A stretch of DNA of 64,000 nucleotides from a virus, in IMG/VR virus record IMGVR_UViG_3300017917_004222, positions 1 through 64,000 of that record. One strand, 5' to 3'. Below the pieces are notes generated by a model. That model was not told the origin of the DNA, did no database searches, and saw only the letters and a list, made by a program, of their open reading frames with translations. Below are positions 1 through 8,285 of this stretch, piece by piece. The position numbers and the translations under genes are program-made. Numbering within the stretch: position 1 is the stretch's first letter; the number at the start of each line of letters is the position of its first letter.

Positions 1-2
1 AT

Positions 3-77
3 GGGCTGTAGGTGTTGTAGGGGGCACACGGGCTTTGCAAGCCTGAAGGAACGGTTCGATCCCGTTACGGTCCACCA
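3..77 (+). tRNA. tRNA-Ala(TGC)
   Basis: GGGCTGT/ACGGTCC acceptor with G3:U70, loop TT-TGC-AA, TTCGA T-loop, encoded CCA. Confidence 0.85.
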
Positions 78-87
78 AAGTTTTTTT

Positions 88-166
88 CTGTGTGTATTGT
101 CAGTCAGGTCAGACGGCCGGCCTTGGAAGTCGGAGGTCGCAGGTTCGAATCCTGCCACACAGACCA
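88..166 (+). tRNA. tRNA-Pro(TGG)
   Basis: CTGTGTG/CACACAG acceptor, loop CT-TGG-AA, CCA. Confidence 0.9.
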
Positions 167-171
167 ATCAA

Positions 172-269
172 TCCACTGTAGGCTTGGTGCCCGGGTTGGC
201 GCGCACCCCGAAGAAACGGTTCGATTCCGTTCAATGTGGTTACTTGGGTTCGATTCCCAAGACAGTGGG
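172..269 (+). ncRNA. tRNA-like element with two tandem T-arms
   Basis: TCCACTGT/ACAGTGGG closing stem; two GGTTCGATTCC hairpins; no CCA. Confidence 0.6.
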
Positions 270-278
270 CTTTTTCAT

Positions 279-353
279 ATACCCTTGGTGTTAACGGCAG
301 CATGTCGGTCTCCAAAACCGCGGGAGAAGGTTCGAATCCTTCAGGGTATGCCA
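279..353 (+). tRNA. tRNA-Trp(CCA)
   Basis: ATACCCT/AGGGTAT acceptor, loop CT-CCA-AA, G73, CCA. Confidence 0.9.
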
Positions 354-358
354 GTTTT

Positions 359-414
359 AGGTTCCTTTCAGCAAGCAAAAAACTTTTATCGAAAAAAAGC
401 AAAAGCGGAACCTG
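359..414 (+). ncRNA. CAGCAA-motif armless tRNA-like RNA, copy 1 (loop AT-CGA-AA)
   Basis: AGGTTCC/GGAACCT+G stem, TTTCAGCAA, CTTTT/AAAAG hairpin with 7-nt loop. Confidence 0.7.
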
Positions 415-425
415 TTGATTTTTGT

Positions 426-499
426 TGGGGTATTATGTAATGGTAGCATATCAGACTTTGACTCTGAGAGCGTAGGTTCGATCCCTACTACCCCTACCA
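426..499 (+). tRNA. tRNA-Gln(TTG)
   Basis: cloverleaf, loop CT-TTG-AC, CCA. Confidence 0.9.
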
Positions 500-506
500 A
501 GTTTTT

Positions 507-581
507 GCCTCCATAGCTCAGTGGTAGAGCACCGTCTTGATAAGGCGTAGGTCCTTGGTTCGATCCCAAGTGGCGGCACCA
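507..581 (+). tRNA. tRNA-Ile(GAT)
   Basis: cloverleaf, loop TT-GAT-AA, CCA. Confidence 0.9.
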
Positions 582-590
582 AATTTCCAT

Positions 591-667
591 GGTGTCGATA
601 GTGTAGTGGTCTGCACGGGTGTCTGTGAAACACTCAGTGGCGGGTTCGATCCCCCCTCTTCACCCCA
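591..667 (+). tRNA. tRNA-His(GTG)
   Basis: G-1/C73, loop CT-GTG-AA; some stem mismatches. Confidence 0.85.
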
Positions 668-675
668 TGACATTT

Positions 676-751
676 CCCGCTCCAGCTAACCTGGTGGAAG
701 CGCTGCGCTGAAAACGCAGAGGGACTGGTTCGAAACCAGTGGGCGGGACCA
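676..751 (+). tRNA. tRNA-Phe(GAA)
   Basis: cloverleaf, loop CT-GAA-AA, CCA. Confidence 0.9.
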
Positions 752-759
752 GATTTTTG

Positions 760-789
760 TTGACTGCTGACTGCAGTTGACTATATAAT
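760..789 (+). promoter_or_regulatory. sigma70-type promoter inside tRNA array
   Basis: TTGACT-N18-TATAAT. Confidence 0.6.
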
Positions 790-798
790 GTAGACATT

Positions 799-888
799 GG
801 TGCGGTCCCATAATGGTATTGGAGCGGATTGCTAATCCGTCGATCGGTGAAAGCCGGTTTCTGAGTTCGAGTCTCAGTCGCACCGCCA
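799..888 (+). tRNA. tRNA-Ser(GCT)
   Basis: long variable arm, loop TT-GCT-AA, G73, CCA. Confidence 0.92.
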
Positions 889-896
889 AACAACAT

Positions 897-979
897 GCTG
901 GAGTCGCATAGCGGCGATTGCAACGGTTTTGTAAGCCGTCGGGAAACCCACGTGAGTTCGAGTCTCACCTCCAGCACCA
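897..979 (+). tRNA. tRNA-Thr(TGT) with atypical long variable arm
   Basis: ACGGT/GCCGT stem, loop TT-TGT-AA, V-arm GGG-AAA-CCC, G1:C72/C2:G71. Confidence 0.75.
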
Positions 980-987
980 AGTTTTAT

Positions 988-1062
988 TCCGGAGTAGCAC
1001 AGCGGTAGTGCAGTTGACTGTTAATCAATTGGTCGTAGGTTCGATCCCTGCCTCCGGAGCCA
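988..1062 (+). tRNA. tRNA-Asn(GTT)
   Basis: canonical cloverleaf, CCA. Confidence 0.95.
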
Positions 1063-1068
1063 AACAAT

Positions 1069-1143
1069 GCGGGATTAGCTCAGTGGTAGAGCGAAACGTT
1101 GCCAACGTTTAGGCCATCGGTTCGAATCCGATATTCCGCTCCA
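1069..1143 (+). tRNA. tRNA-Gly(GCC)
   Basis: canonical cloverleaf, U73, CCA. Confidence 0.95.
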
Positions 1144-1150
1144 GACAAAC

Positions 1151-1224
1151 GCTCTTGTAGTTAAGTGGCATAACAAATCCATGGTAAGGATTAGTCGACA
1201 GTTCGATTCTGTACTAGAGCACCA
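1151..1224 (+). tRNA. tRNA-Thr(GGT)
   Basis: loop AT-GGT-AA, CCA. Confidence 0.9.
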
Positions 1225-1230
1225 AACAAT

Positions 1231-1320
1231 AGTGAGTTGCCAGAGAGGCCTATTGGCGCATCTTGGAAAGGTGATGGTCCCGCACGGGGCACGAGAGTTC
1301 GAATCTCTCACTCACTGCCA
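1231..1320 (+). tRNA. tRNA-Ser(GGA)
   Basis: long V-arm, loop TT-GGA-AA, G73, CCA. Confidence 0.9.
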
Positions 1321-1393
1321 TGTAAAAACACATTACGGTCTGAAACAAACCTGCCGGCGGGAATCAGTAGGGTCCTAGTGTGTTACTATATGG
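1318..1393 (+). repeat. conserved long stem, copy A (CATRTAAAAACACATT...AGTGTGTTWCTATATG family)
   Basis: inverted arms near-identical to those at 1800, 2107 and 2232. Confidence 0.65.
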
Positions 1394-1477
1394 AAGGTTA
1401 TCTAGGCTGGGCCTGGGACTGCTTCGAACGCAGAACGATCCGCAAGGGTTGGGGTTCGATTCCTCAGCCTTCCTCCA
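1392..1477 (+). tRNA. tRNA-Ser(CGA), 8/4-type non-canonical cloverleaf, U73
   Basis: GGAAGGTT/AGCCTTCC acceptor, long D-stem with tiny loop, long V-arm. Confidence 0.8.
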
Positions 1478-1479
1478 AA

Positions 1480-1570
1480 CAAGCCCATACCCACCCCTGA
1501 CGTGACTTGAGTCACTGGGCTTGCTCATACAATTCCATACCCCAGACAGACGTGGGCGAGTCCCTGGAAT
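1480..1570 (+). ncRNA. tandem pair of small structured motifs (CCATACCC..GACGTG..GAGTC.CTGG)
   Basis: two copies, 1480-1523 and 1532-1570, with different but paired closing stems. Confidence 0.55.
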
Positions 1571-1579
1571 CTTTTTCAT

Positions 1580-1657
1580 ACCACCTTAGTTCAACTGGAT
1601 AGAACACCGGCCTACGAAGCCGTGAGGTTGGGAGTTCGAATCTCTCAGGTGGTGCCA
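1580..1657 (+). tRNA. tRNA-Arg(ACG)
   Basis: loop CT-ACG-AA, CCA. Confidence 0.92.
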
Positions 1658-1665
1658 GTCAGCAG

Positions 1666-1694
1666 TTGACAACAATCAACTGGTGTGCTACAAT
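1666..1694 (+). promoter_or_regulatory. sigma70-type promoter
   Basis: TTGACA-N17-TACAAT with TG extended -10. Confidence 0.8.
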
Positions 1695-1719
1695 GCAAGC
1701 ATGTTAAGAAATTAACACA

Positions 1720-1732
1720 CGCTCTTTAACAA
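1720..1732 (+). promoter_or_regulatory. rrn-type boxA antitermination site
   Basis: CGCTCTTTAACAA about 25 nt downstream of the -10. Confidence 0.8.
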
Positions 1733-1799
1733 TCTAGCACACAGCAGTCTGAAGGCGCCCAGCAGGGCCGTCCGCTTGCGACAAGCCGACACTTCAGAC

Positions 1800-1842
1800 G
1801 CTATATTAGAACGCATTGATCCTCAGTGTGTTCCACTATAGC
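1800..1842 (+). repeat. conserved long stem, copy B
   Basis: GCTATA-TTA-GAACGCATTGA / TCAGTGTGTTC-CAC-TATAGC. Confidence 0.55.
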
Positions 1843-1862
1843 ATGTTCAAAAGGAGAACAAC

Positions 1863-1892
1863 ATGAAACGTGGTAAATCTGCCAAACGTTAG
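1863..1892 (+). CDS. 9-aa basic micropeptide MKRGKSAKR
   Basis: strong AAGGAG SD with normal spacing before ATG; followed by a hairpin. Confidence 0.45.
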   Translation: MKRGKSAKR

Positions 1893-1953
1893 TGTCATCC
1901 TGGATCCCCGTATGGTCCTGGATGGCACGTAAAAGACAATTGTTACGATCCAT

Positions 1954-2030
1954 CCCTTGCTGGCGTTAATGGTTAGCGTACCGGACTCTTAATCCGCGAG
2001 GTCTCAGTTCGAATCTGAGGCAAGGGACCA
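1954..2030 (+). tRNA. tRNA-Lys(CTT)
   Basis: loop CT-CTT-AA, CCA. Confidence 0.9.
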
Positions 2031-2033
2031 TAT

Positions 2034-2109
2034 GGGGCTATGGTGAAACGGTTATCACAGCGGACTTTTAATCCGTCAATTCAGGGTTCGAATCCCTGTG
2101 GCCCTACCA
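2034..2109 (+). tRNA. tRNA-Lys(TTT)
   Basis: loop CT-TTT-AA, CCA. Confidence 0.9.
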
Positions 2110-2231
2110 TATAAAAACATTTTTGACGCGCACAGCCCGCAATTGGAGCGGGTGTTGTCTGCGGTCTCCTGGCAGAGGCGAAAGGTTCTGTGTGCCAGCG
2201 CAGAGCTGATATTGAAAGTGTTTCTATATGG
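2107..2231 (+). repeat. conserved long stem, copy C, enclosing about 90 nt of GC-rich structure
   Basis: CCATATAAAAACATTT / AAAGTGTTTCTATATGG. Confidence 0.65.
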
Positions 2232-2309
2232 TCATGCAAAAACACATTCTTTGAGGTCTTGGTCGTTACCAGCGTGGCAAAAACGGCGACAGAGTGTGTT
2301 TCTATATGA
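2232..2309 (+). repeat. conserved long stem, copy D
   Basis: TCATGCAAAAACACATTCT / AGAGTGTGTTTCTATATGA. Confidence 0.65.
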
Positions 2310-2385
2310 GTGTGCACTGTGCTACAACTGCCAGGCCTGGGCGAGAGCCAGGCGAACCGCAGACGAACGTGCACAGGGCTTGATT

Positions 2386-2460
2386 GGTGCTATGCGATAG
2401 ACGGATGTCGACGGGTTTCATAAGCCCTGGAGGAAGGATCGATACCTTCTAGCACCACCA
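2386..2460 (+). tRNA. tRNA-Met/Ile2(CAT), atypical T-loop ATCGATA
   Basis: GGTGCTA/TAGCACC acceptor, loop TT-CAT-AA, CCA. Confidence 0.75.
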
Positions 2461-2468
2461 GTTTCAGT

Positions 2469-2545
2469 AGGGGATTCGCCAAGTTGGTTAAGGCACCTGA
2501 TTTTGATTCAGGCATTCGGTGGTTCGAATCCATCATCCTCTGCCA
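2469..2545 (+). tRNA. tRNA-Gln(TTG)
   Basis: loop TT-TTG-AT, G73, CCA. Confidence 0.92.
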
Positions 2546-2552
2546 TAGTATT

Positions 2553-2627
2553 CGGTCCTTGGTGAAATGGATATCATGCTGGTCTTCGAAACCAGCGGTG
2601 GGAGTTCGATCCTCTCAGGACCGGCCA
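2553..2627 (+). tRNA. tRNA-Arg(TCG)
   Basis: loop CT-TCG-AA, CCA. Confidence 0.92.
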
Positions 2628-2632
2628 AGTTT

Positions 2633-2697
2633 AGGATAGGTTCAGCAACCAAAATGCATTCAACTTGTAATTGAAACCGCAAACAACTATCCTGCCA
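2633..2697 (+). ncRNA. CAGCAA-motif armless tRNA-like RNA, copy 2 (loop CT-TGT-AA, ends G-CCA)
   Basis: AGGATAG/CTATCCT+GCCA, GTTCAGCAA, TTCAA/TTGAA hairpin. Confidence 0.75.
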
Positions 2698-2698
2698 T

Positions 2699-2774
2699 GC
2701 TCTTGTAACTCAGTTGGTAGAGTAACGTCTTGATAAGGCGGCGGTCCCTGGTTCGAGTCCAGGCGAGAGCACCA
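2699..2774 (+). tRNA. tRNA-Ile(GAT)
   Basis: loop TT-GAT-AA, CCA. Confidence 0.92.
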
Positions 2775-2775
2775 A

Positions 2776-2946
2776 TCAAAATTGTCCGAGCCAGGCGCGA
2801 GCCTGCTCCACATCAGTGAAGAATCTCATGGTGAGCTGTTCACTATAAATATCGTAGACATAGATGTAGCACACGGTGCGATCTGGGTTGAGGCTGAGAT
2901 GCACATGACCCGCCCCGTTGTTGAACACAAAGTCTCTGGTAATCAT
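2776..2946 (-). CDS. hypothetical protein (56 aa), antisense within tRNA array, late promoter
   Basis: fills the gap between two tRNAs; TAAATA 5 nt upstream of ATG. Confidence 0.7.
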   Translation of the reverse strand: MITRDFVFNNGAGHVHLSLNPDRTVCYIYVYDIYSEQLTMRFFTDVEQARAWLGQF

Positions 2947-2958
2947 GCAAGTATTTAA

Positions 2959-3036
2959 GCGGGTAGATTGTGGCAAGGGGCGCCCAGCGGTCTTCCAAAC
3001 CGATAATGCGGAGTTCGACTCTCCCTACCCGCTCCA
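2959..3036 (+). tRNA. tRNA-Gly(TCC), irregular D-arm
   Basis: loop CT-TCC-AA, U73, CCA. Confidence 0.8.
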
Positions 3037-3092
3037 AGACGTCTCCATTACACACGGAGTACATTAGGAAAAATAGTGTGTAACGAATTCAT

Positions 3093-3167
3093 GCCTGGTT
3101 AGCTCAGCGGTAGAGCAGCGCCCTTACAAGGCGACGGTCGGCGGTTCAATCCCGTCACCAGGTACCA
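3093..3167 (+). tRNA. tRNA-Val(TAC)
   Basis: canonical cloverleaf. Confidence 0.95.
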
Positions 3168-3173
3168 AACAAA

Positions 3174-3244
3174 TGCGGGGAGTCAGGCGAGGGGTCAGTC
3201 TCATAAGCTCGGCCCAGGAGGTTCGAATCCTTCCCCCGCAACCA
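3174..3244 (+). tRNA. initiator-like tRNA-Met(CAT) with reduced D-arm
   Basis: TGCGGGG/CCCCGCA+ACCA as in fMet; loop CT-CAT-AA; D-arm shortened. Confidence 0.6.
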
Positions 3245-3249
3245 ACTTT

Positions 3250-3323
3250 CTCGGTGTAGTGAAATGGTATCACCCGTGCTTTGGGAGCATGTAGCGCAAG
3301 TTCGATTCTTGCCACCGAGACCA
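3250..3323 (+). tRNA. tRNA-Pro(TGG)
   Basis: loop TT-TGG-GA, CCA. Confidence 0.9.
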
Positions 3324-3332
3324 ATTGACAAT

Positions 3333-3352
3333 GCACAGGTACCAGAGTGGTC
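3333..3352 (+). pseudogene. 5' fragment of a disrupted tRNA (probably Cys)
   Basis: GCACAGG-TA-CCAGAGTGGTC; acceptor pairs with CCTGTGC-T-CCA at 4166-4176. Confidence 0.75.
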
Positions 3353-3414
3353 TTGAAAACTAGGTTTTCGGAATCGAGGTGTGGTTTAACTACTCTGCTT
3401 TCCGCCAAAGTTAT

Positions 3415-3490
3415 GTAGATGTGACCCGAATGGCCAGGGACCGGATTGCAAATCCGGTATATGCAGGTTCAAATCCTGTCATCTACTCCA
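3415..3490 (+). tRNA. tRNA-Cys(GCA)
   Basis: loop TT-GCA-AA, U73, CCA. Confidence 0.93.
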
Positions 3491-3528
3491 TTTTACGAAC
3501 TTATGCTATATATAAAGCGAGAGTTCAA

Positions 3529-4152
3529 ATGTTTTGTGAAAATTGTAAAAAAGAGCACAACGGTAGTTACGGATCAGGAAGATTTTGCGGAGCTAAGTGT
3601 GCTCGCGGGTTTTCTACTAAAAATAAAAGAGTGGAAATAAATCGAAAAGTTTCTGCCAAAATGTCTAATAGGTCGTTGTCAGATGAACACAAGAAAAACA
3701 TAGAACAAGCAAACAATTTTAATCGAAAAGAGAAAATTACAAAAAATTGTTTGAATTGTAACACTACAATGCTATGTCGGCCATCAGATCACAGGAAATT
3801 TTGTACATCAAAATGCTGGGCAAACTACACAGAAAAAAATAAAGAACCTTTTTTGTTATACAGACAAAGATGCAACTTTGATTTCAAGTTTGAAGATCAT
3901 CCAGATAAATTTGATTTATCACTAGTAGAACAATTTGGATGGTATAGCCCGAGCAACAAAGGAAACAATTTAGATGGTGTTTCTAAAGATCACATGGTCA
4001 GTGTTAGGACCGGGTTTGAGTTGGGGATAGACCCTGAAATTATTAAACACCCGGCCAACTGTAAATTAATGTTACACCGACAAAATCAAAGTAAAAACCA
4101 AAAAAGCTCAATTAGAGTCGAGGAATTAATCGAAAGAATAAAAAATTGGTGA
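3529..4152 (+). CDS. HNH-type homing endonuclease with Zn-finger/NUMOD3-like N-terminus
   Basis: CxxC..FCxxxC motifs, SKDHMVS...HPANCKLMLHRQNQSK HNH-like core, AT-rich. Confidence 0.85.
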   Translation: MFCENCKKEHNGSYGSGRFCGAKCARGFSTKNKRVEINRKVSAKMSNRSLSDEHKKNIEQANNFNRKEKITKNCLNCNTTMLCRPSDHRKFCTSKCWANYTEKNKEPFLLYRQRCNFDFKFEDHPDKFDLSLVEQFGWYSPSNKGNNLDGVSKDHMVSVRTGFELGIDPEIIKHPANCKLMLHRQNQSKNQKSSIRVEELIERIKNW

Positions 4153-4176
4153 GTTCGAATCTCACCCTGTGCTCCA
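4148..4176 (+). pseudogene. 3' fragment (T-arm plus acceptor) of the disrupted tRNA
   Basis: GGTGAGTTCGAATCTCAC-CCTGTGC-T-CCA; overlaps the endonuclease stop codon. Confidence 0.8.
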
Positions 4177-4181
4177 ATCAT

Positions 4182-4271
4182 GGAAGATAGGCTGTATGGT
4201 GCAGACGCGGTCTTGAAAACCGTCCCGCTGTTGAGGAAACGGCGACAGTTCGATTCTGTTATCTTCCTCCA
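4182..4271 (+). tRNA. tRNA-Ser(TGA), 8/4-type non-canonical cloverleaf, U73
   Basis: GGAAGATA/TATCTTCC acceptor, ACAG/CTGT T-stem, long V-arm. Confidence 0.82.
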
Positions 4272-4289
4272 CTAACAAGGAGAACGTGC

Positions 4290-4466
4290 ATGAAAGCCGT
4301 GTATTTTGAAAACCTACGCAACCGCGAACGTTTCTATTGCACTGATGTCAAGGACGTTCGCATGATCGACGGTGTAGAATATCTGCGTGTGTTCCGTGAA
4401 GGTACCCAGCGTGATTGCTTGGTCAAACGGGAACTGTTGCGCAGGATACCTGCACCAAGTAAATAA
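4290..4466 (+). CDS. hypothetical protein (58 aa)
   Basis: AAGGAG SD, ORF MKAVYFENLRNRERF... Confidence 0.75.
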   Translation: MKAVYFENLRNRERFYCTDVKDVRMIDGVEYLRVFREGTQRDCLVKRELLRRIPAPSK

Positions 4467-4467
4467 C

Positions 4468-4498
4468 GCCGCGGTAGCTCATCAGGTAGAGCAGCAGA
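4468..4498 (+). pseudogene. 5' half of a truncated tRNA (Phe-like)
   Basis: GCCGCGG-TA-GCTC-ATCAGGTA-GAGC-A-GCAGA, then an abrupt break before the anticodon loop. Confidence 0.75.
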
Positions 4499-4516
4499 GT
4501 AGGCATAAATAGACTT

Positions 4517-5107
4517 ATGCTAACCTGTAAATACTGCCAAAAAGAATGCAAGAGCGAGAACTCTTTAAGAAATCACGAACGTTGTTGTCCGCATAATCCG
4601 TCTAGAGTATACAAAAACGGCATGCTAGGAAAAAAAGGATCCAACCAGTTTACCTTGGCGAAGCGATTAGGGAATAATGTCCCTGCCGCATGGAACAAAG
4701 GTTTGCCGGGGTTCTTTGCAGGTAAAAAACACAGCGACGAATCTAAAAGAAAAATTAGCGAAAAACTTTCAGTCAACAACAAAGGCGGAAGAGCCAAGTG
4801 GTATGACGTTGCTGGGCAACGAGTTCAAGGTACCTGGGAAAGAGATATAGCATCGAAGTTGACTGATCTCGGAGTCCCGTGGATAAAGTTAAAGACAAAC
4901 AAAGATACACTGAAGTATGTTATGAACGGGAAAGAGCGTTCATATACTCCTGACTTTTATCTTCCTGAATTCGATATGTACCTTGAGATCAAAGGTTTTT
5001 GGTGGGGAGATGATCGAGAAAAGATGCGTATTGTACTCGAAACGCACACCGACAAACGTATTGTAATAATAGAGAAACAAGAGTACGAACAAATTTTGCT
5101 GCTTTAG
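4517..5107 (+). CDS. homing endonuclease: Zn-finger + NUMOD3 + PD-(D/E)XK nuclease
   Basis: CKYC..HERCC, AWNKG..KHSDESKRKIS, YTPDFYL...LEIKG; AT-rich. Confidence 0.85.
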   Translation: MLTCKYCQKECKSENSLRNHERCCPHNPSRVYKNGMLGKKGSNQFTLAKRLGNNVPAAWNKGLPGFFAGKKHSDESKRKISEKLSVNNKGGRAKWYDVAGQRVQGTWERDIASKLTDLGVPWIKLKTNKDTLKYVMNGKERSYTPDFYLPEFDMYLEIKGFWWGDDREKMRIVLETHTDKRIVIIEKQEYEQILLL

Positions 5108-5173
5108 CTGATGTGGTCATAGCAACGGACTGAAAATCCGAGGAACCCTGTTCGATCCGGGGAGGCAGCACCA
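5098..5173 (+). tRNA. tRNA-Phe(GAA), overlapping the endonuclease 3' end
   Basis: GCTGCTT/AGGCAGC acceptor, loop CT-GAA-AA, CCA. Confidence 0.9.
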
Positions 5174-5186
5174 ACAAGGACTGTGT

Positions 5187-5600
5187 ATGAAACATTTGAT
5201 TTTGGCTCTGGCTCTGTTGTTGGCAGTTCCAGCACAGGCACAAGACATTCCTGCTCGCTTTGATGTGCATACTGACTTGAGGCCGTTTGTGACTTGGATT
5301 GCCCAGCACACCCGGTTCCGGGATGCAGATCGCATCACCAGTGATGAAGTGCCAGAAATTGTGTTTCTCAACGGCAGCGACTACATGCGATTGGTTCGTG
5401 TGTGGGGGCTGGCAGCATACTCTCCAGAGATCAACACCATTGCGGTGAACATGGATCTGGATGGCAATCGAGCAGATGTGCTCATACACGAGTTGATTCA
5501 CTTTTATCAATGGCGTCAAGAATCCTGGGACCGAGGAGACAACGATTCCCGTGAGCGCGAAGCACAACAAATACAGCGCCAGTTTTTGACACGTCAATGA
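5187..5600 (+). CDS. secreted zincin-like metallopeptidase
   Basis: signal peptide ending AQA; LIHELIH HExxH motif. Confidence 0.7.
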   Translation: MKHLILALALLLAVPAQAQDIPARFDVHTDLRPFVTWIAQHTRFRDADRITSDEVPEIVFLNGSDYMRLVRVWGLAAYSPEINTIAVNMDLDGNRADVLIHELIHFYQWRQESWDRGDNDSREREAQQIQRQFLTRQ

Positions 5601-5605
5601 TCACA

Positions 5606-5680
5606 CTCCCCGTAGTTCAATGGATAGAACCACCCTCTCCTAAAGGGTAAATGGCAGTTCGATCCTGTCCAGGGAGACCA
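5606..5680 (+). tRNA. tRNA-Arg(CCT)
   Basis: loop CT-CCT-AA, CCA. Confidence 0.9.
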
Positions 5681-5685
5681 ACACA

Positions 5686-5761
5686 GGACGATTAGCTCAG
5701 TTGGTAGAGCGCCTCCTCGACACGGAGAAGGTCAGTGGTTCAAATCCACTATCGTTCACCA
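5686..5761 (+). tRNA. tRNA-Val(GAC)
   Basis: loop TC-GAC-AC, CCA. Confidence 0.9.
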
Positions 5762-5766
5762 CACAT

Positions 5767-5844
5767 GCCCCGATGGTGGAATTTGGCAGACACGCTGCGT
5801 TCAGGTCGCAGTTTCTGAGGGTTCGAGTCCCTCTTGGGGTACCA
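5767..5844 (+). tRNA. tRNA-Leu(CAG) lacking the long variable arm
   Basis: Leu-type D-loop GGCAGACAC, loop TT-CAG-GT, V-loop only TTTC. Confidence 0.85.
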
Positions 5845-5850
5845 AGTTCA

Positions 5851-5911
5851 AGGATGCATTCAGCAAACAACTTTTTTCACTTTTTGGCTGTGAAAAGCAA
5901 ACTGCATCCTG
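5851..5911 (+). ncRNA. CAGCAA-motif armless tRNA-like RNA, copy 3 (loop TT-TTG-GC)
   Basis: AGGATGC/GCATCCT+G, ATTCAGCAA, TTTTCAC/GTGAAAA hairpin. Confidence 0.72.
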
Positions 5912-5922
5912 TCGTTTTTGAA

Positions 5923-6007
5923 GCCTTTGTGGAGGAATTGGTAGACTCGCAGCGTTGAGGTCGCTGTGCCGAAAGGCGTGCAGGTTCGAGTCCTGTCAAA
6001 GGCACCA
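5923..6007 (+). tRNA. tRNA-Leu(GAG)
   Basis: long V-arm, loop TT-GAG-GT, CCA. Confidence 0.95.
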
Positions 6008-6015
6008 TTATTAAT

Positions 6016-6087
6016 TGGCTCACTCTGGCAGATCTCGTGGGGTCCAAACCCGTCGAGTCCCAGGTTCGATTCCCGGAGGGCCAGCCA
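6016..6087 (+). tRNA. degenerate tRNA-Trp(CCA)-like
   Basis: loop GT-CCA-AA, T-loop, G-CCA end; poor D-arm. Confidence 0.5.
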
Positions 6088-6092
6088 TTTTT

Positions 6093-6252
6093 GTAGCAAC
6101 CAGTCCCGCGATAATCCAGCTGTGGAGACACTGTCCGGACCGTGGTAAAGGTACTGTGTAAAAGGCGTTGCGAGAGTTGTGTGCGCTCACTGATCACACA
6201 AGCTGCTAAAGATCGAAGCGCAAACTAATAGAGTTGTGTCTCTGCCTGCTAC
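6093..6252 (+). ncRNA. candidate structured ncRNA (about 160 nt)
   Basis: GTAGCA/TGCTAC, GAGACAC/GTGTCTC and TTGTGTG/CACACAA stems; possible TGCGCT/AGCGCA pseudoknot. Confidence 0.5.
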
Positions 6253-6259
6253 CCTTTTT

Positions 6260-6475
6260 TGCAAACAGAAAAACGTGCGGGGGCAATACCCCTTGGAGCT
6301 CTGGCCCTGGTAAGGCAACTGCATCTCCTATGGATCAGTTGGACGGATGAGAGGTCCGTCACTGTTGCCGGTGTAAAGAATTATCTATTGTGGAATGCCG
6401 CGTGATGCCTTTGTAGTGCAAACCCCGCATCGATGGTTCACAGCCACACGCCCCGGCGAAACCGGACTGTTTGCA
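6260..6475 (+). ncRNA. candidate structured ncRNA (about 215 nt)
   Basis: TGCAAACAG/CTGTTTGCA closing stem; TGCGGGG/CCCCGCA, CAACTG/CAGTTG, GACGGA/TCCGTC, CCGG/CCGG. Confidence 0.55.
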
Positions 6476-6488
6476 CCCGAAAGAATGT

Positions 6489-6698
6489 ATGTACAAGATA
6501 GATGAAAAAGAATTCGCTGACCTAGAGTCAGCAATGGCGCATGCCCGAACACTAGATCAGTTTGTGACCATTGAGGGTCCAGATTTTGAAGTGTGCGGGC
6601 GCTTTGGTGTCGACACCATCCGTGACGGGCTTTGCCCAGACGGAGTGGCGTATGACTGGAACAAAGCCAGCCGTATTGGTGCTACCCGGCGCCGATGA
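6489..6698 (+). CDS. hypothetical protein
   Basis: ORF MYKIDEKEFADLESA... between RNA genes. Confidence 0.7.
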   Translation: MYKIDEKEFADLESAMAHARTLDQFVTIEGPDFEVCGRFGVDTIRDGLCPDGVAYDWNKASRIGATRRR

Positions 6699-6707
6699 AC
6701 CAAATAT

Positions 6708-6782
6708 GGGGGCAGCAGAGGGCTGCGGCGTTGCCTGGCAGGCATCGTGTCTAGAGGGGATCGTTACCCCCGGCCTCCACCA
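6708..6782 (+). tRNA. degenerate tRNA-Ala(GGC)
   Basis: G3:U70, A73, loop CT-GGC-AG, T-loop ATCGTTA. Confidence 0.6.
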
Positions 6783-6787
6783 AGTCA

Positions 6788-6892
6788 AGGATGACTACAG
6801 CAACATAAAACTTCTCCAACCACTTTTCTGGAGGCCAGCCCAGTAGGGGGCGTGTCGTGGGTTCGACTCCCGGCTTTAGACACATCATCCTG
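6788..6892 (+). ncRNA. CAGCAA-motif RNA, copy 4 (long form with T-loop arm)
   Basis: AGGATGA/TCATCCT+G, CTACAGCAA, internal hairpins including GGGTTCGACTCCC. Confidence 0.7.
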
Positions 6893-6902
6893 TCATTTTC
6901 AA

Positions 6903-6979
6903 CTCCGTATGGCGCAGCCAGGTAGCGCACTTGTCTGGGGGACAAGGGGTCGCAGGTTCGAACCCTGCTACGGAGACCA
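6903..6979 (+). tRNA. tRNA-Pro(GGG)
   Basis: loop CT-GGG-GG, CCA. Confidence 0.92.
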
Positions 6980-7072
6980 ACATGGTTTACATAAACCAAG
7001 AATTCAAGTAGACTATATACTTGAACAACCCGCCCGGTGGTTGCGATCCCGGGCACATTCAGAAAGCACCAT

Positions 7073-7543
7073 ATGAAAAAGCTAGATCTCGACGAAGTCA
7101 AACGATTCATCGACGCTCAATCCCCGGAGACCAAAATCTACCTGGGTTGCGACAGTGAACGACTCAAAATCGATGGCAAATGGTACGCGGACTACATCCT
7201 GGCCGTCGTGGTGCACATCAACGGCAACAACGGTTGCAAAATTTTCGGTGAAGTGCAGCGCGAACCTGTGTGGGATGCCAAGCCCGGCAAACCTGCCATG
7301 CGACTCATGACAGAAGTTTACAAAGTGTCCGAACTGTATCTCAAGCTGGCCGAAGTGCTGGATGGGCGACAGGTGGAAGTGCACTTGGACATCAACCCTG
7401 ATGAAGAATTCGGCTCCAGCTGTGTGATCAGCCAGGCCGTGGGCTACATCAAGGGCACCTGCAACGTGGTTCCATTCGTGAAGCCGCATGCATTTGCTGC
7501 CAGCTACGCTGCCGATCGATTCAAAGGTCTGCGAGCAGCCTAA
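7073..7543 (+). CDS. RNase H-like YkuK/DUF458 family protein
   Basis: IYLGCDS...E...VHLDIN...AASYAADR motifs. Confidence 0.8.
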   Translation: MKKLDLDEVKRFIDAQSPETKIYLGCDSERLKIDGKWYADYILAVVVHINGNNGCKIFGEVQREPVWDAKPGKPAMRLMTEVYKVSELYLKLAEVLDGRQVEVHLDINPDEEFGSSCVISQAVGYIKGTCNVVPFVKPHAFAASYAADRFKGLRAA

Positions 7544-7554
7544 AAACTATTATG

Positions 7555-7600
7555 GCCCCCGTCAGTTGCCTACCAGGGACTGCTCGGGGGTTTTTCTTTG
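7555..7600 (+). terminator. probable intrinsic terminator
   Basis: CCCCCG...CGGGGG stem followed by a T-tract. Confidence 0.55.
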
Positions 7601-7628
7601 GCCGCAGTGACCACCACCAATGACACGC

Positions 7629-7692
7629 ATAGACAATCCCAATAGAAAAACCTAATATTTCGCTTGCTTTCATTGCTATATACTATTACAAT
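7629..7692 (+). promoter_or_regulatory. ahpC promoter with possible OxyR/LysR boxes
   Basis: ATAG-N7-CAAT and ATAG-N7-TAAT upstream of TTGCTT-N17-TACAAT. Confidence 0.4.
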
Positions 7693-7742
7693 ATCAACAC
7701 AGTGTTAGCGCACTGATCTACATTCATCAACCAAGGAGAAAC

Positions 7743-8285
7743 ATGAAAACAGTAGGACACAAACTTGACAACTTCGTCGTGACCGGCGTTCGCCCAGGCC
7801 AGCCTGAGGACGCATTCTTTGACATCAACCAAGACAGCTTCCCTGGCAAGTGGAAGGTGATCGTTTATTACCCCAAGGATTTCACATTCGTGTGCCCCAC
7901 TGAAATCGTGGCATACGACCGGCTGGCCGGTGACTTTGAGGACCGTGATGCTGTGCTGTTGACTGGTTCAACTGACAACGAGTTCTGCAAAGTGGCTTGG
8001 CAAAACGCCCATGCCGACCTCAAGAAGATCACCCACACTCAGTTTGCCGATACCCAACGCGGTGAATTGAGCCTTGCTGAACAATTGGGCGTGTTCTACG
8101 CTCCAGCCGGTGCTGCACTGCGCGCCACTTTCATTGTTGACCCAGACAACGTGATTCAACACGTGACTGTAAACAACCTCAACGTGGGCCGCTCACCAGA
8201 AGAAACATTGCGTATTCTTGATTCTCTACAAACGGGAGAGTTATGTCAGTGTAACAGAAAGATTGGCGAAGCGACCTTAGGCTAA
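7743..8285 (+). CDS. ahpC: peroxiredoxin, alkyl hydroperoxide reductase C
   Basis: YPKDFTFVCPTE peroxidatic motif; GRSPEETLR..GELC. Confidence 0.97.
   Translation: MKTVGHKLDNFVVTGVRPGQPEDAFFDINQDSFPGKWKVIVYYPKDFTFVCPTEIVAYDRLAGDFEDRDAVLLTGSTDNEFCKVAWQNAHADLKKITHTQFADTQRGELSLAEQLGVFYAPAGAALRATFIVDPDNVIQHVTVNNLNVGRSPEETLRILDSLQTGELCQCNRKIGEATLG

Follow-up and report, generated by a model that had tools for sequence, protein, structure and literature searches.

A nuclease gene joined to a replacement tRNA-Phe lies within a broken tRNA-Phe gene in the tRNA array of a T4-like phage

The window analysed here is a stretch of 64,000 nucleotides (positions 1–64,000) from IMG/VR record IMGVR_UViG_3300017917_004222, a viral record of 147.8 kb that is estimated to be 43% complete. 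The record contains T4-type baseplate genes, and its source is a large T4-like phage. The first 7 kb of the window form a phage tRNA array of 30 genes (ARAGORN), in which we examined a plus-strand locus at 4468–5173 where a broken tRNA-Phe gene, an endonuclease gene and a complete tRNA-Phe gene follow one another. The locus starts with the remnant of a resident tRNA-Phe(GAA), here called type A (4468–4501), which consists of the acceptor 5′ strand, the D arm, the 5′ strand of the anticodon stem and a decayed loop reaching nucleotide 34. The left end of the inserted material is marked by a late-promoter-like motif of the T4 type, CATAAATA (4504–4511), which forms the 5′ arm of a predicted hairpin of 6–7 bp (4503–4520) whose 3′ arm contains the ATG of the nuclease gene. 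This gene (4517–5107) encodes 196 amino acids and runs into a second tRNA-Phe(GAA), designated type B, which is complete including CCA (5098–5173) and which we call the cargo tRNA. A sequence-only reading of this DNA had described the tRNA 5′ half, the nuclease open reading frame (ORF) and the overlapping tRNA-Phe, and we found each of them where that reading had placed it. From the arrangement of these parts, we consider it quite likely that 4502–5173 make up a single cassette, composed of a late promoter, the nuclease gene and a complete tRNA-Phe gene, that sits in the anticodon of the original tRNA-Phe. The nuclease is the only ORF of this cassette. A DNA search with the whole region against GenBank phages returned matches at the tRNA level only.

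The identity of the broken gene was established from other viral genomes. Positions 4468–4498 agreed at all 31 bases with the 5′ part of intact type-A tRNA-Phe(GAA) genes in viral contigs. A 24-base stretch of the remnant occurs in 42 IMG/VR contigs; it begins an intact tRNA-Phe(GAA) in 40 of them, and in the remaining two the type-A tRNA-Phe carries an insertion at the same spot. The 40 intact copies rule out a chance resemblance of 4468–4498 to a tRNA and bear out the earlier description of this half as Phe-like. Typing the remnant from the tRNAs of the window alone was misleading, as the best local match was then a tRNA-Val and tRNA-Phe ranked sixth, whereas the intact copies in outside contigs assign it to Phe. 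Comparison with a sister cassette, L001, indicated that 4499–4501 resemble loop positions 32–34 with two substitutions. In L001 the remnant remains intact as far as G34, and its sequence runs on from the flank found in L033, a contig in which the site is empty. We did not find an intact type-A tRNA-Phe gene in the 147.8-kb record that contains the window. A second tRNA-Phe(GAA) lies at 676–751 of the window and is oddly spelled, with C at position 8 and an unusual D arm; it resembles the cargo of a distant cassette, L097. This gene and the cargo tRNA are thus two non-canonical forms, and a canonical tRNA-Phe gene is absent from the record.

Both ARAGORN and Infernal called 5098–5173 a complete tRNA-Phe(GAA) (Rfam score 51.1 bits, gathering score 29), and its minimum-energy fold was a cloverleaf. 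The TAG stop codon of the nuclease gene (5105–5107) occupies tRNA positions 8–10, so that the two genes share 10 bases, made up of the last three codons and the stop. The sequence-only reading had held that these codons form the start of a divergent tRNA-Phe(GAA), and the coordinates agree. Among related cassettes, the tail of the ORF is what the start of the tRNA encodes up to its first in-frame stop, which is a TAG at positions 8–10 in type-B tRNAs and a TGA at positions 20–22 in a further type, C.

The nuclease has an N-terminal CCHC zinc finger, a flexible linker with a NUMOD3-like repeat and a C-terminal PD-(D/E)XK domain of the T7 endonuclease I type. Pfam matches to Phage_endo_I (PF05367; E = 2.3e-8, 34.3 bits against a cut-off of 29.1 bits) and zf-C2H2_jaz (22.8 bits against 22.6 bits) exceeded their cut-offs, and NUMOD3 (PF07460, residues 68–81) fell just under its own (19.6 bits against 20.4 bits). 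The zinc-finger and PD-(D/E)XK parts of the domain assignment made from the sequence alone therefore stood, and its NUMOD3 part was borderline. We found no GIY-YIG domain in this protein (Pfam, E up to 1), and its PHROG matches were to endonuclease families. A profile built from 33 relatives matched T7 endonuclease I in the Protein Data Bank (PDB entry 1M0D) with an E-value of 4.8e-12 over profile residues 116–204. Residues E108, D146, E157 and K159 align with the catalytic residues of T7 endonuclease I and are invariant or nearly so among the 33 relatives; the L093 ORF was left out of the family alignment and of the tree described below. In an AlphaFold model with a mean predicted confidence score (pLDDT) of 82.6, the zinc finger and the nuclease domain were confident, the linker (residues 31–70) was not, and the structured part ended at about residue 195. 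The top Foldseek matches in the PDB were T7 endonuclease I (E = 2.4e-3, 33% identity) and I-Bth0305I (template modelling score, TM, of 0.52). By these sequence comparisons, the 196-residue protein is a predicted endonuclease with an intact active site. The N-terminal half differs between nuclease clades, and in two other contigs (L010, 3001–3630; L011, 3001–3624) the same zinc-finger N terminus precedes a nuclease domain of the DUF559 (Vsr-like) kind instead. The zinc-finger head thus appears to be swapped between nuclease domains, a modular exchange typical of homing enzymes.

The region ahead of the nuclease gene contains a candidate control element. The motif at 4504–4511 agrees at every base except the first with the T4 late-promoter consensus, and it would be expected to act as a late promoter. 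Most related cassettes have an ATAAATA-type motif in the interval that separates the tRNA piece from the start codon. In the window, ATAAATA occurs 6 times (2.3 expected), including a position 29 bases upstream of the baseplate-wedge gene, and it also precedes segB in T4. The hairpin at 4503–4520 had a minimum free energy of −7.3 kcal/mol (z = −2.5); the equivalent stems were 10 bp in L001 (z = −4.3) and 11 bp in T4 segB (z = −7.0). Hairpins of this kind were predicted in about two thirds of the related cassettes, with differing sequences and arms that covary. Folding and covariation thus clearly show a hairpin between the late-promoter region and the start codon, a predicted control element that the sequence-only reading had missed. 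In T4, such a promoter/start hairpin reportedly silences translation from early read-through transcripts. Elsewhere in the array, an exact TATAAATA lies at 2844–2851, and about 100 bases past it is a tRNA-like sequence (2956–3036) with a 7-bp acceptor stem that ARAGORN did not call and that matched the Rfam tRNA-Sec model weakly (29.6 bits).

Comparison of filled and empty sites revealed what the cassette replaces. The nuclease of L001 is 75% identical to that of the window and is joined to the same type of cargo tRNA. L001 and L033 are 95% identical in their left flanks and 89% identical in their right flanks; the type-A tRNA-Phe is intact in L033, and in L001 the identity is lost after G34 and returns at the CCA that ends the cargo tRNA. 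L001 therefore has 675 bases, comprising promoter, nuclease gene and cargo tRNA, in place of the last 36 bases of the resident tRNA. A further empty-site contig, L049, was also compared with L001. Contig L052 has the tRNA order of the window (Val-Cys-Ser ... Phe ... Val-Leu ... Pro, followed by a 168-residue ORF) with an intact type-A tRNA-Phe and with neither of the two nuclease genes of the window. As the 137-residue ORF downstream of the window cassette has no relative in IMG/VR, we read the right junction of the window from L001. The sequence-only reading had named a non-Phe tRNA at 4468 in empty-site relatives as the observation that would speak against it, and these relatives carry a tRNA-Phe there. 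We also found that the cassette and its intact target exclude one another. A Phe-linked relative of the nuclease was absent from all 40 records in which the type-A tRNA-Phe is intact; three of these records encode distant relatives (34–39% identity) that adjoin a tRNA-Met or tRNA-Ser. Six independent loci still have a 3′ remnant beyond the cargo tRNA. The acceptor strand of this remnant base-pairs with the upstream piece at 7 of 7 positions, which places the cassette inside a split gene. The 5′ piece is kept in nearly every case and the 3′ piece is often lost; the 5′ piece may be retained because it functions as an operator, as in the autorepression of I-TevI, or because it provides a homology arm.

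The same layout recurs widely. In a first scan of viral contigs, 11 contained relatives of the nuclease, and in all ten of those with a downstream tRNA the ORF ended 10–49 bases inside it; the same ten carried a 5′ tRNA piece and an ATAAATA-type motif upstream of the ORF. A wider locus search with a 7-sequence alignment gave 68 loci, in 34 of which the ORF ended 10–49 bases inside a tRNA-Phe. Because the three-part layout recurs in 10 of 10 first-found relatives with a downstream tRNA and in 34 of 68 loci of the wider search, we do not attribute it to chance. Two of the remaining loci abut a tRNA-Phe, four adjoin Ser, Leu or Tyr tRNAs, and about nine are distant relatives located just downstream of a complete tRNA-Phe. 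Nuclease ORFs lie 40–100 bases 3′ of a complete tRNA-Phe in L099–L105, L079, L081, L085 and L109, and in several of L099–L105 the spacer contains one or two short D-loop-like repeats (TTGGTAG-type), which may be decayed tRNA pieces or binding sites.

Relatives that run into other tRNAs also have a broken 5′ piece upstream, as observed for tRNA-Met (L007, L009 and the phages PhaxI and Kuja), tRNA-Ile (L008), tRNA-Lys (L010) and tRNA-Arg (vB_Eco_F25). Wherever the anticodon of the upstream piece survives in these Met, Ile, Lys and Arg relatives, it denotes the same isoacceptor as the cargo tRNA. Across dozens of contigs and five isoacceptors, the break falls after nucleotides 31–36. We read the types of the upstream fragments from motifs and by eye, because automatic typing was partly swamped by neighbouring complete tRNAs and because D arms are shared across isotypes. 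The layout is present in dozens of uncultured phages and in several cultured ones, with members in phages of E. coli, Vibrio and Acinetobacter. In coliphage vB_Eco_F25 (L122, OP870144, 1440–2200), a tRNA-Arg(TCT) piece is followed by the nuclease gene and a T4-type tRNA-Arg with a 38-base overlap, and the nuclease gene occupies the position of segB in T4; in the phage collection, no more than five records, from four phages, contained a gene of this type with at least 95% identity. The tRNA-Met cassettes of E. coli O157 phage PhaxI (L125, JN673056, 520–1297) and Vibrio phage Kuja (L127, MN718199, 560–1339) each have a 10-base overlap that is visible in the GenBank annotation. GenBank labels the F25, PhaxI and Kuja genes ‘endonuclease I’ or hypothetical, and the annotated coding sequence of Kuja starts upstream and reads through the tRNA piece.

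The cargo and target types of the Phe cassettes suggest that invasion is repeated. The cargo is of type B in the window, L001 and L003 and of type C in most other Phe cassettes, and both types depart from type A in four elements, namely the acceptor stem, D arm, anticodon stem and variable loop. When 27 nucleases were placed in a maximum-likelihood tree, the kind of target that had been broken tracked with the nuclease clade. Members of the clade that includes the window nuclease are mostly found in a broken type-A gene and carry B or C, members of the clade L059–L065 are found in a broken type-B gene and carry C, and other clades are found in further variants. Type B is therefore cargo in one clade and broken target in another, which suggests that tRNA-Phe cassettes invade serially.

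A different cassette occupies the same site in L016 (6289–7090, minus strand), where a type-A tRNA-Phe is broken after nucleotide 31. This cassette has a sigma-70-like promoter, a 206-residue ORF with an HNH-like motif and no Pfam match, and a type-B tRNA-Phe that begins 4 bases after the stop codon. As its HNH-like gene is unrelated to the window nuclease and the layout is the same, the design is not tied to one nuclease fold. The window itself contains a second broken tRNA (3333–4271), of which the 5′ piece (3333–3352) and the 3′ piece (4148–4176) have complementary acceptor strands. These pieces enclose a tRNA-Cys (3415–3490) and an HNH-like ORF (3529–4152, phrog_23051) that ends with a TGA stop within the T arm of the 3′ piece, and a complete tRNA-Ser(TGA) follows at 4182–4271. 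The cargo tRNAs of three other loci (L054, 2082–2157; L056, 2079–2154; L008, 3580–3654) have T loops with A54 and T58, the reverse of the usual T54–A58 pair.

Consistent with these comparisons, we propose that the cassette spreads by cut-and-replace homing. In a mixed infection, a phage without the cassette would have its type-A tRNA-Phe gene cut by the nuclease, within the anticodon stem-loop or immediately beside it, and repair would then use the cassette-bearing genome as template. For this repair, the left homology arm would be the retained 5′ tRNA piece with the upstream flank, and the right one the downstream flank or a retained 3′ tRNA piece. The recipient would lose the 3′ part of its own tRNA-Phe and gain the nuclease together with a type-B tRNA-Phe. 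Type B is presumably not cut, because it differs from type A in the four elements named above, and the phage would retain a tRNA-Phe throughout, so that invasion would be cheap without the splicing of an intron or intein. Expression would follow the T4 pattern, with a late promoter embedded in a hairpin by which the start codon would be masked in read-through transcripts. Support for this explanation, which we hold as a whole to be probable, comes from the filled and empty pair of contigs, from cassettes that match the isoacceptor for five amino acids, and from the lack of the nuclease wherever the target is intact. The core of the sequence-only reading, that a mobile nuclease cassette cut the resident tRNA-Phe and supplied its own, is thus supported by comparison, and the same comparison supports the idea that the overlap ties a selfish nuclease to the replacement tRNA.

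Several points weigh against this explanation. We infer DNA cleavage and its site, homing, and the immunity and function of the cargo tRNA from comparative anatomy, in the window as in every other member. All Foldseek E-values against the PDB were above 0.001, and we base the fold assignment mainly on sequence profiles. As a junction resolvase, T7 endonuclease I is specific for structure and not for sequence, and we assume that the half with the zinc finger and NUMOD3-like repeat supplies the specificity. About 9–10 target bases, from the 3′ side of the loop and the 3′ strand of the stem, are missing where both halves of the target survive, which a simple insertion at one cut does not predict. 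Finally, the right flank of the window has no strictly syntenic empty-site partner, so its junction is as predicted from L001.

Other explanations for the locus fared less well. The nuclease could be a domesticated helper that breaks tRNA genes to recombine, amplify or reshuffle the array, for example in escaping tRNA-targeting host defences, as has been reported of SegB in T6. SegB stimulates the segmental amplification of tRNA genes around it, and its co-location with tRNAs is widespread (PMC13096335); a helper role would fit both the great differences in tRNA order between related contigs and the two unusual tRNA-Phe genes of the window. However, the zinc-finger/endonuclease-I family is isoacceptor-specific and leaves behind a broken copy of exactly that tRNA, whereas SegB has no isotype preference. 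Presence and absence between near-identical flanks, together with exclusion from genomes with an intact target, is what a homing element predicts. We regard the helper explanation as unlikely, and note that the helper and homing roles are compatible with each other. Still less probable is a passive scar, in which ordinary recombination, to which tRNA arrays are prone, would have placed a second tRNA-Phe and a nuclease inactive on tRNA genes beside a truncated tRNA-Phe. Such an origin does not account for the same break in dozens of contigs and five isoacceptors, for fragment types that track the nuclease clade, or for an unrelated HNH-like gene with the same arrangement at this position of the tRNA-Phe. 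The anticodon loop is the classical site of group I introns in bacterial tRNAs, and the nuclease belongs to the same superfamily as I-Ssp6803I, an arrangement in which the 5′ piece would be an exon and a nuclease-bearing intron would be spliced out. We rejected a group I intron or split tRNA and give it almost no weight, as no group I intron or other ribozyme was detected in positions 1–8000 of the window (E up to 1) and no 3′ exon able to pair with the acceptor strand at 4468 was found downstream in the window; in relatives, the 3′ pieces lack about 9–10 bases and a whole tRNA intervenes.

Within the cut-and-replace explanation, the overlap itself could act as a switch. Cleavage by RNase P between 5097 and 5098 would strip the last three codons and the stop from the nuclease message, and non-stop stalling would limit the enzyme. 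The stop codon lies inside the cargo tRNA in 34 of 34 close Phe cassettes and also in the Met, Ile, Lys and Arg cassettes, so every transcript processed by RNase P would lack a stop codon, and the end of the structured protein at residue 195 makes the tail a dispensable run-on. On the other hand, the overlaps of 10–49 bases seen in close relatives fit an ORF that merely runs on to the first in-frame stop, and the promoter/start hairpin already offers a separate control element. The stop codon also lies 0–2 bases ahead of the tRNA in the distant relatives L102, L106, L107 and L110 and 5 bases ahead of tRNA-Arg in T4 segB; the layout therefore does not need a stop inside the tRNA, and the conserved trait is juxtaposition. 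The constant feature is the lack of a spacer between ORF and tRNA, which fits either a tight linkage of nuclease and cargo or formation of the 3′ end of the message by RNase P. We consider RNase P control doubtful, with a dedicated non-stop switch being possible and not indicated by sequence alone.

A broader and more tentative extension of the cut-and-replace explanation, which we consider less likely than not, is that phage tRNA arrays host a guild of splice-free ‘gene-drive’ cassettes, in each of which a nuclease is fused to an immune, re-spelled version of the tRNA it destroys. The guild may span several folds, T7-endonuclease-I-like here, DUF559/Vsr-like in L010 and L011, and HNH-like in L016 and at 3529–4152 of the window. 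Each new cassette may target the immune tRNA of the previous one (A, then B, then C). The retained 5′ half may serve as an operator or homology arm and the fusion of ORF and tRNA as an RNase P-coupled shut-off, and the junction-resolvase-type domain might recognize a tRNA gene as extruded cloverleaf DNA. If such a guild exists, the unusual D arms, the swapped T loops and the shuffled tRNA order of phages would be driven by homing endonucleases rather than by the needs of translation.

The only harmless routes into conserved genes generally attributed to homing endonucleases are self-splicing introns or inteins, or a place beside the gene. The cassette described here enters the RNA gene itself, and the cost is paid by a complete and presumably immune substitute. 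If the proposed mechanism is correct, it would explain the shuffled tRNA arrays of phages, the broken tRNA pieces in them that annotation pipelines miscall, and the non-canonical arms of many phage tRNAs. It would also provide natural pairs of target and immune alleles for studying the co-evolution of nuclease specificity and tRNA sequence, and the compact zinc-finger/endonuclease-I enzymes may have DNA specificity at the level of the isoacceptor. The mechanism is directly testable, as members occur in the cultured phages of E. coli, Vibrio and Acinetobacter. In the literature searched, with most subscription journals out of reach, we found no description of a nuclease fused to a same-isoacceptor replacement tRNA within its broken target, and we regard the cassette as a new form of free-standing homing endonuclease.

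Among known systems, T4 SegB comes closest. It cleaves tRNA genes in phages without segB, and neighbouring tRNA genes are transferred together with it during homing (PMC2330249). In T4 and T6, as in the window, a free-standing nuclease gene lies in a phage tRNA cluster directly ahead of a tRNA gene (PMC2330249, PMC13096335), and T4 segB has the same kind of late-promoter/start-codon hairpin. Unlike the window nuclease, which is of another fold, SegB is a GIY-YIG enzyme that recognizes a shared T-arm motif and cuts the 3′ ends of many tRNA genes. By contrast, the family described here is tied to one isoacceptor, breaks the anticodon region, leaves the 5′ half behind and has its ORF fused to a replacement of the same isoacceptor.

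Partial parallels exist in other systems. I-Ssp6803I is said to be a PD-(D/E)XK homing endonuclease encoded in a group I intron of a cyanobacterial tRNA-fMet; like the window enzyme, it belongs to the PD-(D/E)XK superfamily and is inserted at a tRNA anticodon loop. There, splicing restores the tRNA, whereas no ribozyme was detected at the window cassette and a second complete gene would restore the function; the window enzyme also differs in its zinc-finger/linker architecture and its core of the T7 endonuclease I type. The Holliday-junction resolvase T7 endonuclease I (PF05367; PDB 1M0D, 1FZR and 2PFJ) shares a homologous catalytic domain in which the four catalytic residues are kept, but it has no zinc finger or linker, is structure-specific and is an essential enzyme of recombination and packaging rather than a sporadic gene adjacent to tRNAs. 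I-TevI and the T4 seg and mob genes are reportedly under late-promoter/hairpin control, and I-TevI is said to repress its own expression. These enzymes likewise combine nuclease and DNA-binding modules on a flexible linker, with NUMOD3-like and zinc-finger elements and a late-promoter hairpin that occludes the start. In the window protein the order is reversed, with the DNA-binding half at the N terminus, and the nuclease fold is different; by analogy with I-TevI, our guess is that the retained tRNA piece may act as an operator. In the mitochondrial atp6 gene of Allomyces, a free-standing endonuclease insertion reportedly carries a duplicate of the 3′ end of the invaded gene. This case and the integrative elements that restore tRNA 3′ ends share with the window cassette a ‘bring your own copy’ strategy without splicing, in which the displaced piece stays as a pseudogene. 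The atp6 type duplicates only the displaced part of a protein gene, and the integrative elements restore the 3′ end of a tRNA through an integrase. We found no integrase signature at the window cassette, where the nuclease is the single ORF; this cassette instead carries a whole, diverged RNA gene and leaves the 5′ half of its target behind.

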